Source of the DNA: Escherichia phage aaroes
Strand: one strand, 5' to 3'
DNA: 51,662 nucleotides
Sequence record: NC_049826.1
How positions within the stretch are numbered: the first letter of the stretch is position 1; the number at the start of each line of letters is the position of its first letter. Below the pieces are notes generated by a model. It did not search any database and was not told the origin of the DNA. It saw only the letters and a list, made by a program, of their open reading frames with translations. Positions 17,253 through 29,305 of the stretch are shown here, piece after piece. A program made the position numbers and the translations under genes.

Positions 17253-17298
17253 AATGCCTCATACAGCGAACAGGACGCATTTTGACGAGGCATTTTTT
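17253..17298 (+). terminator. intrinsic terminator
   Basis: Stem AATGCCTC / GAGGCATT with a long loop, then a 6-T run. Confidence 0.55.
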
Positions 17299-17442: not shown

Positions 17443-17672
17443 TGTTTGGAATGAACGAGGCACAATTCAACGCTGCAAAACGCCAGGCTAAGAAGTGCGG
17501 CGAGGCAATGAAGGCGGATGTTGAAAAGCGCGGAAAGTATGTTGATGAAGTTATGAAGGGCATTATTGCCGAACATTATCAGCCAGTTGCGCCAATGCTG
17601 ACAATTACCCAATTCATCTGGTTGTGTGGTTATCTTCGTGGGCGATGGGGAAACGCATTTGACCGCGAATGA
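17442..17672 (+). CDS. hypothetical protein (76 aa)
   Basis: ORF coupled to the upstream small ORF. Confidence 0.45.
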   Translation: MFGMNEAQFNAAKRQAKKCGEAMKADVEKRGKYVDEVMKGIIAEHYQPVAPMLTITQFIWLCGYLRGRWGNAFDRE

Positions 17673-17701
17673 TTGACAACAATTTCCTGATTGGTTAACA
17701 T
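17673..17701 (+). promoter_or_regulatory. sigma70-type promoter (TTGACA-17-TAACAT)
   Basis: TTGACA 17673-17678, exact 17-nt spacer, TAACAT 17696-17701. Confidence 0.5.
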
Positions 17702-17764
17702 CTTCTGTGTTTACATAAGAGCGGCGTTAGTGCCGAACGGGTGGCGCGGTTGCCACGCAACAAC

Positions 17765-17806
17765 GGCGATATGCAGGTTTTTACCGTAAGACGTATCGCC
17801 TTTTTT
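17765..17806 (+). terminator. leader terminator/attenuator immediately upstream of an RBS
   Basis: Stem GGCGATA / TATCGCC followed by 6 T, ending 12 nt before ATG 17819. Confidence 0.55.
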
Positions 17807-17818
17807 ATAGGTGGATAT

Positions 17819-18052
17819 ATGGAAAAGTACAAATTAACTTTCATGTTTAATAGTATGGTGATGAATCCCTTAAATGGTTACGCTTGCAATAGCTTTTCTG
17901 TTACCGTGGATGAGGATGGAATTGATGATGATGGTAAATTTATTCAAATAGGTGATTACCTTTATCCTATTCACAATATCAATTGCATCAAACGCGAGAT
18001 CGTAAAAGATGAAGTACAAAGTAAAGCTGACGATCAGGCGAATGGGGCGTAA
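17819..18052 (+). CDS. hypothetical protein (77 aa)
   Basis: AGGTGGA RBS before internal ATG; the track ORF extension covers the leader terminator. Confidence 0.45.
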   Translation: MEKYKLTFMFNSMVMNPLNGYACNSFSVTVDEDGIDDDGKFIQIGDYLYPIHNINCIKREIVKDEVQSKADDQANGA

Positions 18053-18190
18053 TTGCCAGTCATGTAGGCAGGATTTTGAATGCGAGATTTCAGCGCAAAA
18101 TCCTGTTGACGCGATTCAATGTGCTAAAGTTATATCAGGTGCAGATCCAGAGACGCATCAATTTTCAATCAATTTTGTAAGGGAAGTATT

Positions 18191-18424
18191 ATGTTGAACT
18201 TAATTTCTGCTTTTGTTATTGGTTTTGTTCTTGCTGTAATTATTCTGTTTGTCGCATCGGAAAAGATTTGCAAATTTCTTGCTAAGAACGGGAAGTTTGC
18301 AAGCGTGACATGGAATAACAAGATGCAGCGATGGGATGTTCGCGGTCACTATCTGACGATTGGTAGCAAAATCCATCAGCACCTGAAGAATCAAGAAGAT
18401 GAAAAAGTAAAATACAAGTATTGA
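18191..18424 (+). CDS. hypothetical membrane protein (77 aa)
   Basis: N-terminal TM helix (LISAFVIGFVLAVIILFVA). Confidence 0.45.
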   Translation: MLNLISAFVIGFVLAVIILFVASEKICKFLAKNGKFASVTWNNKMQRWDVRGHYLTIGSKIHQHLKNQEDEKVKYKY

Positions 18425-18431
18425 CCAACTA

Positions 18432-18453
18432 CCCGCCAAATGGCGGGTTTTTT
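18432..18453 (+). terminator. intrinsic terminator ending the early block
   Basis: CCCGCC-aaat-GGCGGG followed by a 6-T run. Confidence 0.8.
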
Positions 18454-18503
18454 ATTGCCTGCAATTTGTCTATAATGAGGCTTTGTTATAAGGAGGGCGC
18501 ATT

Positions 18504-20623: not shown

Positions 20624-20647
20624 GGCTGGTAAATCCAGCCTTTTTTA
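20624..20647 (+). terminator. intrinsic terminator
   Basis: GGCTGG-taaat-CCAGCC plus a 6-T run. Confidence 0.8.
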
Positions 20648-24354: not shown

Positions 24355-24378
24355 GGCGCTCAGTGAGCGCCTTTTTTA
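24355..24378 (+). terminator. intrinsic terminator between the two paralogs
   Basis: GGCGC-tcagtga-GCGCC then 6 T. Confidence 0.75.
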
Positions 24379-25897: not shown

Positions 25898-25927
25898 GGG
25901 GAATCCTTAACTGGATTCCCTTTTTTA
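25898..25927 (+). terminator. intrinsic terminator after the capsid gene
   Basis: GGGAATCC-ttaact-GGATTCCC plus a 6-T run. Confidence 0.85.
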
Positions 25928-29266: not shown

Positions 29267-29305
29267 GCGCCTACGGGCGCTTTTTTATTACCTGGAGGAT
29301 TAATA

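Follow-up and report, generated by a model that had tools for sequence, protein, structure and literature searches.

In phage lambda, the constitutive strong promoter PR' produces a short terminated transcript, the 6S RNA, which ends at tR' upstream of the late and packaging genes, whose expression needs read-through; the module works through the Q protein, acting at DNA sites together with a sigma-dependent pause, and the short RNA carries no conserved structure requirement. Species 1 and 2 of phage T4 (rnaC and rnaD) are structured RNAs of about 100-150 nt and of unknown function, found in one unit with tRNA genes; the c4 RNA of P1 and P7 and the CI RNA of P4 are structured RNAs at the 5' end of an operon, processed from the leader and pairing with complementary sites downstream. 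For the T1-like phages (Drexlerviridae), which count among the most common coliphages and Klebsiella phages and feature in therapy collections, we know of no study in which the timing and control of transcription with the host polymerase have been worked out. In phage HK022, the putL element, a short RNA of two stem-loops, lies immediately downstream of its sigma-70 promoter (PMC9378689).

The locus considered here is from Escherichia phage aaroes, a T1-like siphovirus (Drexlerviridae, Tempevirinae, Hanrivervirus), and lies in a window of 51,662 nt, the whole stretch of DNA that was analysed (NC_049826.1). The element occupies a 146-bp gap between the TGA stop (17670-17672) of a 76-aa ORF and the ATG (17819) of a 77-aa ORF, about 0.7 kb upstream of terS (18504), with terL and the portal gene also there. 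A preliminary description of the gap had listed a promoter, a leader of some 60 nt with one hairpin and an intrinsic terminator, and had suggested either a riboswitch or attenuator, or an sRNA of about 95 nt with a read-through mRNA. Taken by itself, this layout in the aaroes sequence is within what chance would produce (the lone-sequence fold has a z-score of only -1.39), and the case rests on comparison with relatives. About 60 related phages were compared, their loci being gathered by tblastn and a DNA pattern scan; protein-seeded retrieval gave 3-4 loci each. The element's surroundings are 94-98% identical to those in Escherichia phages damhaus, aalborv, vojen and G29-2 (all Drexlerviridae, Tempevirinae, Hanrivervirus). 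By blastn, a 161-bp region is matched in 128 phage records, and in 68 more distant ones (60-80% identity) the match ends at the U-run that closes the element. MG065640 and some 20 similar records, marked UNVERIFIED, carry names of the type "Campylobacter phage A14b, A143, ..." and are classed as Hanrivervirus; they match the aaroes region at 89-91% identity and look like coliphage sequences entered under a Campylobacter host. A separate hairpin with T6 (17255-17298, -9.1 kcal/mol), in the gap that precedes the ORFs of 42 and 76 aa and about 400 nt before the promoter discussed below, is a possible terminator of the upstream small-gene array.

The sigma-70 promoter is present just as it had been described (17673-17701, + strand): a -35 TTGACA (17673-17678) and a -10 TAACAT (17696-17701), separated by 17 nt and scoring 10/12 in a consensus scan; a 2.5-kb scan found 4 promoter-like sites against 5.0 expected. 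In an alignment of 17 Tempevirinae sequences (A1), the TTGAC of the -35 is invariant and the -10 reads TAnCAT. CTGATTGG is conserved inside the spacer, TGn stands directly before the -10 in several relatives, and 11 lineages have an equivalent promoter (TTGACN or TTGCAT, 17-18 nt, TAnnnT) at the same distance. Past the -10 come 7 variable nt, and conservation begins exactly at G17709, always with a pyrimidine preceding; we infer that transcription starts at this G, 7 nt after the -10. From there sequence conservation runs to the U-run, and the gene beyond is swapped in relatives that keep the RNA. The first 13 nt, GUUUACAUAAGAG (17709-17721, + strand), form a conserved single-stranded 5' segment with the family consensus GUnnRCRnWMGAG, in which invariant bases are interspersed with variable ones. 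Its complement is matched 17 times in the phage genome against 14.3 expected, an absence of enrichment that is consistent with recognition by a protein or polymerase and not with an antisense seed.

The core shared across the family has four parts: this 5' segment (GUnnRCRnWMGAG), a helix H1, an AACG linker and a helix H2. H1 (CGGC/GCCG, 17722-17725/17732-17735) is 95.5% paired among 33 distinct sequences, with all four pairs changing on both sides, around an unconserved loop that reads GUUAGU in aaroes and elsewhere UUAGU, UAAG, AACUAA, AUAGA or GAAC. After the linker, AACGG in aaroes (17736-17740; AACG is nearly universal in the family in alignments A5 and A6), H2 (GUGGC/GCCAC, 17741-17756) is 99.4% paired in the same number of distinct sequences, and four of its five pairs change on both sides, as in GUGAC/GUCAC, GUAGC/GCUAC, GUGAG/CUCAC, GCAUC/GAUGC and GCCAG/CUGGC; its loop, GCGGUU in aaroes, is semi-conserved (RCGRWW). 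H2 is the GTGGC...GCCAC hairpin that had been picked out from the aaroes letters, and it covaries. The leader that had been put at about 60 nt is likewise real and conserved, measuring 56 nt before the terminator hairpin, but it contains a third hairpin, H1 (17722-17735), that had been overlooked.

Taken together, the core helices are 97.6% paired in a model-fitted alignment of the 33 distinct sequences, with 8/9 pairs changed on both sides. An independent MAFFT alignment of 14 diverse sequences gives 93.6% paired and 7/10 pairs changed on both sides, against 66% paired in its shuffled control and 20-40% in its slid ones; over the two alignments, controls with the helices slid along the sequence are 20-45% paired. 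These are compensatory substitutions across homologues and on one strand, as in a structured RNA family: the G-U pairs in the helices fit the + strand only, and become C-A mismatches on the opposite one. Together with the promoter that precedes the element, they identify the functional molecule as a + strand RNA, and on the same grounds hairpins acting at the DNA level are disfavoured. The minimum free energy (MFE) and centroid folds are identical and consist of three independent hairpins. A search by eye for pseudoknot or loop-loop pairings (the H2 loop or AACG with CCGU, and the 5' GAG with the 3' tail) gave no support for any of them, because the bases involved either never vary or fail to covary.

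Beyond H2, a linker, GCAACAAC (17757-17764), conserved in the terminator-type lineages, leads into the 3' domain, a hairpin GGCGATATG...CGTATCGCC (17765-17800, + strand, -13.8 kcal/mol) followed by U6 (17801-17806), which is likely to be the 3' end of an RNA of about 98 nt and a partial terminator. The terminator hairpin and T6 thus stand as previously reported (17765-17806), with the end of the T-run 12 nt before the ATG at 17819. The hairpin comprises a 9-bp lower stem (GGCGAUAUG/CGUAUCGCC), an inner GGU/ACC helix and a 3' internal loop, GUAAGA, and it includes the motif CCGUAAGA (17784-17791). A 9-bp lower stem and then U6 is the form of an intrinsic terminator; a consensus terminator scan did not call this one, because its interior, at 18 nt, is atypically long. 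In the terminator lineage the stem is 98.9% paired (slid controls 29-61%), and six of its nine pairs change on both sides. The apex, as aligned, is a variable region of the RNA: the Warwickvirus phages and the Hanriverviruses grams and JLBYU09 (loci L006, L008, L009 and L011-L013) carry an insertion of 17-20 nt there, for example UUUUUGCAUUGCAAAAUAAU, which forms a small hairpin of its own (alignment A1, columns 83-101).

Across the family, two 3' architectures can be distinguished. The first, found in the terminator-type Tempevirinae genera (Hanrivervirus, Warwickvirus, Henuseptimavirus, Changchunvirus), consists of a CAACAAC linker, the long hairpin with its 3' internal loop GUAAGA, and then the U-run, which varies from 4 to 9 residues among close relatives within the Tempevirinae and is interrupted in some. 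The second, found in T1, TLS, the L020 and L021 loci, Braunvirinae and Rogunavirus types, has at least one variable hairpin, then a last hairpin of 5 bp whose loop is ARnCCGUAA, and a tail, CAAC..YUC, that runs directly into the next ribosome binding site; it has no U-run, which is therefore not a conserved feature of the family. A CCGUAA motif is common to both architectures and to most non-terminator lineages, with variants in PHB17, Rao1 and JK06; Webervirus lacks it. Termination is therefore an added property of the 3' domain in the aaroes lineage and not the conserved function. Since certain close relatives have a shortened or broken U-run and T1, TLS and others have none, release as a free RNA would not be universal. 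The T1 lineage has an extra hairpin (T1, L019 7693-7735, with equivalents in L021, L043 and L091) whose loop is AUAGUGGUUAA or GUAGUGGUAA; we take this loop to resemble a tRNA D-loop, and the CGUAA that ends the loop of the final 5-bp hairpin is presumably like positions 34-38 of the anticodon loop of tRNA-Thr(CGU).

A covariance model built from the Tempevirinae sequences finds one strong match per complete genome searched (aaroes, T1, Bas11), upstream of terS, and one per terS-anchored locus in the other lineages, all of them 0.65-0.9 kb upstream of terS (T1, TLS, Bas11, Henu7, PHB17 and IMG/VR contigs). In Webervirus, Braunvirinae, Rao1 and Rogunavirus JK06 the core was recognized by eye or at weaker scores, the Webervirus match being the weakest (10.8 bits, E 0.65). 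By this comparison the core is kept in all sampled Drexlerviridae subfamilies, in Webervirus only weakly. A degenerate pattern scan of IMG/VR returned 67 loci, 48 of which are true members; one scores 40 bits and the others 52-72, and almost all of them come from contigs as long as a Drexlerviridae genome or from smaller fragments. The same pattern matched at least 120 times in 185,579 bacterial and archaeal genomes; 80 of these matches were checked with the model and none was a member (best 17 bits). A blastn comparison of the RNA with 5,426 E. coli genomes gave no match, which argues that it is neither host-derived nor prophage-borne, and the pattern and model searches did not recover the core outside Drexlerviridae-like contigs. 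Rfam 15 had no match in the whole window at gathering thresholds and only noise for 17650-17850 at E<=10, and ARAGORN called neither a tRNA nor a tmRNA anywhere in the window or, for T1, TLS, L020 and L021, at the element. No description of the RNA was found in the literature on T1 antitermination or on Drexlerviridae transcriptomes or sRNAs. Judged by these searches, the element is an undescribed conserved structured RNA family, specific to Drexlerviridae.

In aaroes, a Shine-Dalgarno sequence, GGTGG (17810-17814), follows the U-run and serves the 77-aa ORF from ATG 17819 (17810-18052 in all, + strand), the first gene of a read-through cassette that continues with two small ORFs (18009-18424, + strand) of 62 aa (phrog_2919) and 77 aa (DUF7299, with a hydrophobic N-terminus). 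Ten proteins of the window were scanned against Pfam and nine of these also against PHROGs, and the nine neighbouring proteins are all of unknown function. What follows the RNA differs among relatives. EC147, A14b and Bas11 keep the RNA and have other small ORFs in place of the 77-aa gene. In three others, Rogunavirus JK06, phage Rao1 and one of the Braunvirinae, the RNA's last hairpin is followed at about 10 nt by a gene for tRNA-Arg, with CCT or TCT as its anticodon (L027 1197-1272, L028 1165-1240, L033 1381-1458). In these three the RNA and the tRNA-Arg are presumably made from the same promoter, and their adjacency suggests that the RNA can form part of a stable-RNA unit, from which tRNA processing could free it.

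The short unit in aaroes is closed by an intrinsic terminator, t2 (CCCGCC AAAU GGCGGG and U6; 18432-18453, + strand), which has its equivalent in all 15 of 15 genomes as a canonical terminator with a pure G+C stem and U6-7, 45-80 nt upstream of terS. Directly after it, also in 15/15 genomes, stands a -10 element, usually TGnTATAAT or TGnTAAAAT; in aaroes it is TATAAT (18471-18476, + strand), preceded by a TG that is here displaced by one base (TGTCTATAAT, 18468-18476), and the T1 counterpart of the whole terminator-promoter junction is at L019 8322-8370. It is probable, from the conservation of this element, that terS and the late genes have a promoter of their own at 18468-18476. The conserved terminator and -10 before terS imply that the RNA's promoter heads a short unit, made up of the RNA, two to four tiny ORFs or a tRNA, and a terminator. 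A homologue of the T1 "transcriptional regulator" ST23 is encoded elsewhere in the window (47660-48109, - strand); it has a Cro/YdaS-like helix-turn-helix just below Pfam cut-offs, and ST23 in T1 has a lysine- and arginine-rich N-terminus before the helix-turn-helix region. This protein is a candidate for the regulation of the conserved promoter regions. As an antiterminator it was rejected, its helix-turn-helix being of the Cro/YdaS-like kind and not of any antiterminator family.

Comparison of sequences establishes here that the RNA exists, together with its boundaries, strand, structure and distribution; what it does can be proposed with less assurance. The reading to which most weight is given, with a confidence that stops a little short of even, is that of a discrete functional RNA of about 98 nt (17709-17806) with a leaky terminator, whose core is a module recognised by a protein or by RNA polymerase. 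Host sigma-70 RNA polymerase would initiate at the strong promoter (17673-17701), most likely at G17709, and the transcript would fold into a 13-nt single-stranded 5' end, H1, H2 and the long 3' hairpin. Many transcripts in aaroes and close relatives would end at the U-run, giving a discrete RNA of about 95-98 nt, and the remainder would read through into the three small genes (17819-18424) as far as the terminator at 18432-18453. Such partial termination at 17801-17806, with the rest of the polymerases reading on, is what we infer for aaroes from the hairpin and its U-run. The RNA would act by binding a host or phage protein, or RNA polymerase itself, whatever gene lies downstream. The conserved pattern, in which the helices are kept as shapes and the loop varies in H1 and is semi-conserved (RCGRWW) in H2, points to a recognition module and not to a metabolite switch or an antisense seed, because what is conserved is a shape with few invariant unpaired bases and variable positions interspersed among them. 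Of the two options offered in the preliminary description, the sRNA of about 95 nt with read-through fits this anatomy, but the riboswitch or attenuator is unsupported.

Other possibilities for the role of the RNA can be set against this discrete-RNA reading. In a classical attenuator or riboswitch, a signal would toggle the leader between terminator and antiterminator folds and so control read-through into the ATG at 17819. The order of the elements (promoter, structured leader, hairpin and U6, ribosome binding site) fits, but mutually exclusive folds, such as a switch requires, are not seen: the MFE fold is the centroid fold, and extended folds of 13 homologues contain no conserved competitor for the terminator arm. 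All helices are kept together by covariation, there is no leader peptide and no Rfam match, and most lineages keep the core without a U-run terminator. Since the core persists where the terminator is missing, or where a tRNA follows, regulated termination before one particular gene is not its conserved function, and a switch of this kind is very improbable. A 5' untranslated leader acting purely in cis on the mRNA of the adjoining small genes, by tuning its stability or translation, is less far-fetched, though still unlikely. It could work if the invariant GAG (17719-17721) paired with the U-run or the YUC tail before the Shine-Dalgarno sequence; the ribosome binding site is always 10-25 nt after the last hairpin in ORF-linked lineages, and in some MFE folds (Jahat, Bas11) the purine-rich 5' segment does pair with the tail over 3-7 bp. 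Against it, the closing helix has only 3-4 bp and no informative covariation, a 13-nt unpaired 5' end would be an unusual design for a stabiliser, the following gene differs among lineages, and the tRNA gene that follows in three of them needs no translational control. The least credible account, to the point of being negligible, is that there is no RNA element, only chance motifs or the N-terminal part of a longer protein starting at TTG 17750 or GTG 17741. The frame is indeed open from 17741 into the 77-aa ORF, and GenBank/RefSeq records of damhaus, G29-2 and slyngel annotate a 100-aa product from the equivalent of 17750, with the CDS starting at the TTG inside H2 (window 17741-17818 corresponds to L001 2238-2306, L002 2238-2306 and L014 784-852, respectively). 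Other relatives' records leave the gap non-coding, however, and the ATG at 17819 has its own Shine-Dalgarno sequence. Substitutions in the helices are compensatory, not synonymous, and U-runs of 5, 6, 7 or 9 T in phages with the same downstream gene, together with the 17-20-nt insertion, break the frame. These indels (alignment A1) rule out a coding extension across H2 and the terminator, and on this evidence the true start of the downstream CDS is ATG 17819.

The strongest competitor to the discrete RNA, itself doubtful, is a put-like processive antitermination leader: nascent H1-H2, by itself or together with a phage protein, would bind the elongating RNA polymerase and make it resistant to terminators, enabling transcripts from one strong promoter to pass the RNA's own hairpin, the pre-terS terminator and the late-operon terminators. 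The layout is like that of putL, with two short stem-loops immediately downstream of a sigma-70 promoter, and the element heads a co-directional gene array. Between 17.6 and 37.6 kb there are 34 terminator-like sites where 17.7 +/- 3.8 are expected, and at least four strong intrinsic terminators in the structural operon (20624-20646, 24355-24377, 25899-25926 and 29267-29286, all + strand) have the ribosome binding site and ATG of the next gene within 15 nt. These leave no room for a promoter, so that the downstream genes must rely on read-through. More than 12 terminators are annotated in the late operon in the T1 record, no protein antiterminator is annotated in T1 or Bas11, and an antitermination leader would function independently of the downstream ORF or tRNA, as is observed. 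On the other hand, the extended -10 promoter between the closing terminator and terS in 15/15 genomes would let the late operon start without the RNA, whose own conserved 3' domain is, in aaroes, a terminator hairpin. The strictly promoter-proximal position is hard to explain, since the element would also be transcribed by polymerases coming in from upstream genes, and leaky terminators could by themselves set the expression gradient of the structural genes. The core model (R2), run with filters off on the early control region of HK022 (24.0-36.0 kb), reached at best 5.3 bits (E>1).

If antitermination were nevertheless the function, the RNA would represent a new class of promoter-proximal antiterminator, unrelated to put, and would supply the cis element that is missing from gene control of the T1 type, a proposition that we consider speculative and rather improbable. 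It would then equip host RNA polymerase, by itself or with the help of a small phage protein not yet recognised, to get past the pre-terS terminator and the successive intrinsic terminators of the 20-kb structural operon. An RNA under structural selection, kept across the family, with a fixed place beside the packaging genes, offers a testable handle on the control of transcription in T1-like phages. The finding also corrects gene calls in several reference genomes and adds an RNA family absent from current databases.

Comparison with the known systems brings out partial likenesses. Like Hfq-dependent sRNAs such as lambda PreS and DicF, the RNA has its own promoter, a 3' hairpin with a U-run and, in the aaroes lineage, an AAC-repeat linker; unlike them, its candidate seed is not uniformly conserved, its U-run is lost in most lineages, and no target was found in the phage genome. 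It shares with P1/P7 c4 and P4 CI the position of a structured RNA encoded at the 5' end of an operon, but those pair with downstream sites in temperate elements, whereas T1-like phages are virulent and no complementary sites were found in the phage genome for the 5' segment. The likeness to T4 species 1 and 2 lies in the members of Rogunavirus and Braunvirinae in which the RNA directly precedes tRNA-Arg, although there is no homology, and the aaroes window has no tRNA and an RNA ended by an intrinsic terminator. With regard to lambda-type nut sites, inspection of the + strand from 17709 to 17806 revealed no boxA-like string (CGCUCUUA / GCUCUUUAACAA), and the unconserved loop of H1 differs from the conserved purine-rich pentaloop of boxB.

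Two further parallels concern the organization of the transcription unit. The likeness to HK022 putL/putR is that of a two-stem-loop RNA placed by a sigma-70 promoter at the head of a long phage transcription unit with terminators; a put homologue was rejected, the core model showing no similarity in sequence or structure across the HK022 early control region. Suppression of downstream terminators by put RNA needs no added factor and depends on the zinc-binding domain of beta'. The T1-like RNA, at most a putative antiterminator, is present in one copy per genome, where HK022 has two put sites, and its unit has a terminator of its own and then a separate late-gene promoter. With the PR' module of lambda it has in common a strong promoter whose short transcript is terminated a little before the late and packaging genes. 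No Q-like antiterminator gene is annotated in T1 or Bas11, and no -10-like pause element is conserved in the first 13 nt of the RNA; where lambda relies on a protein and a pause, it is the RNA helices themselves that are under selection in the T1-like phages.
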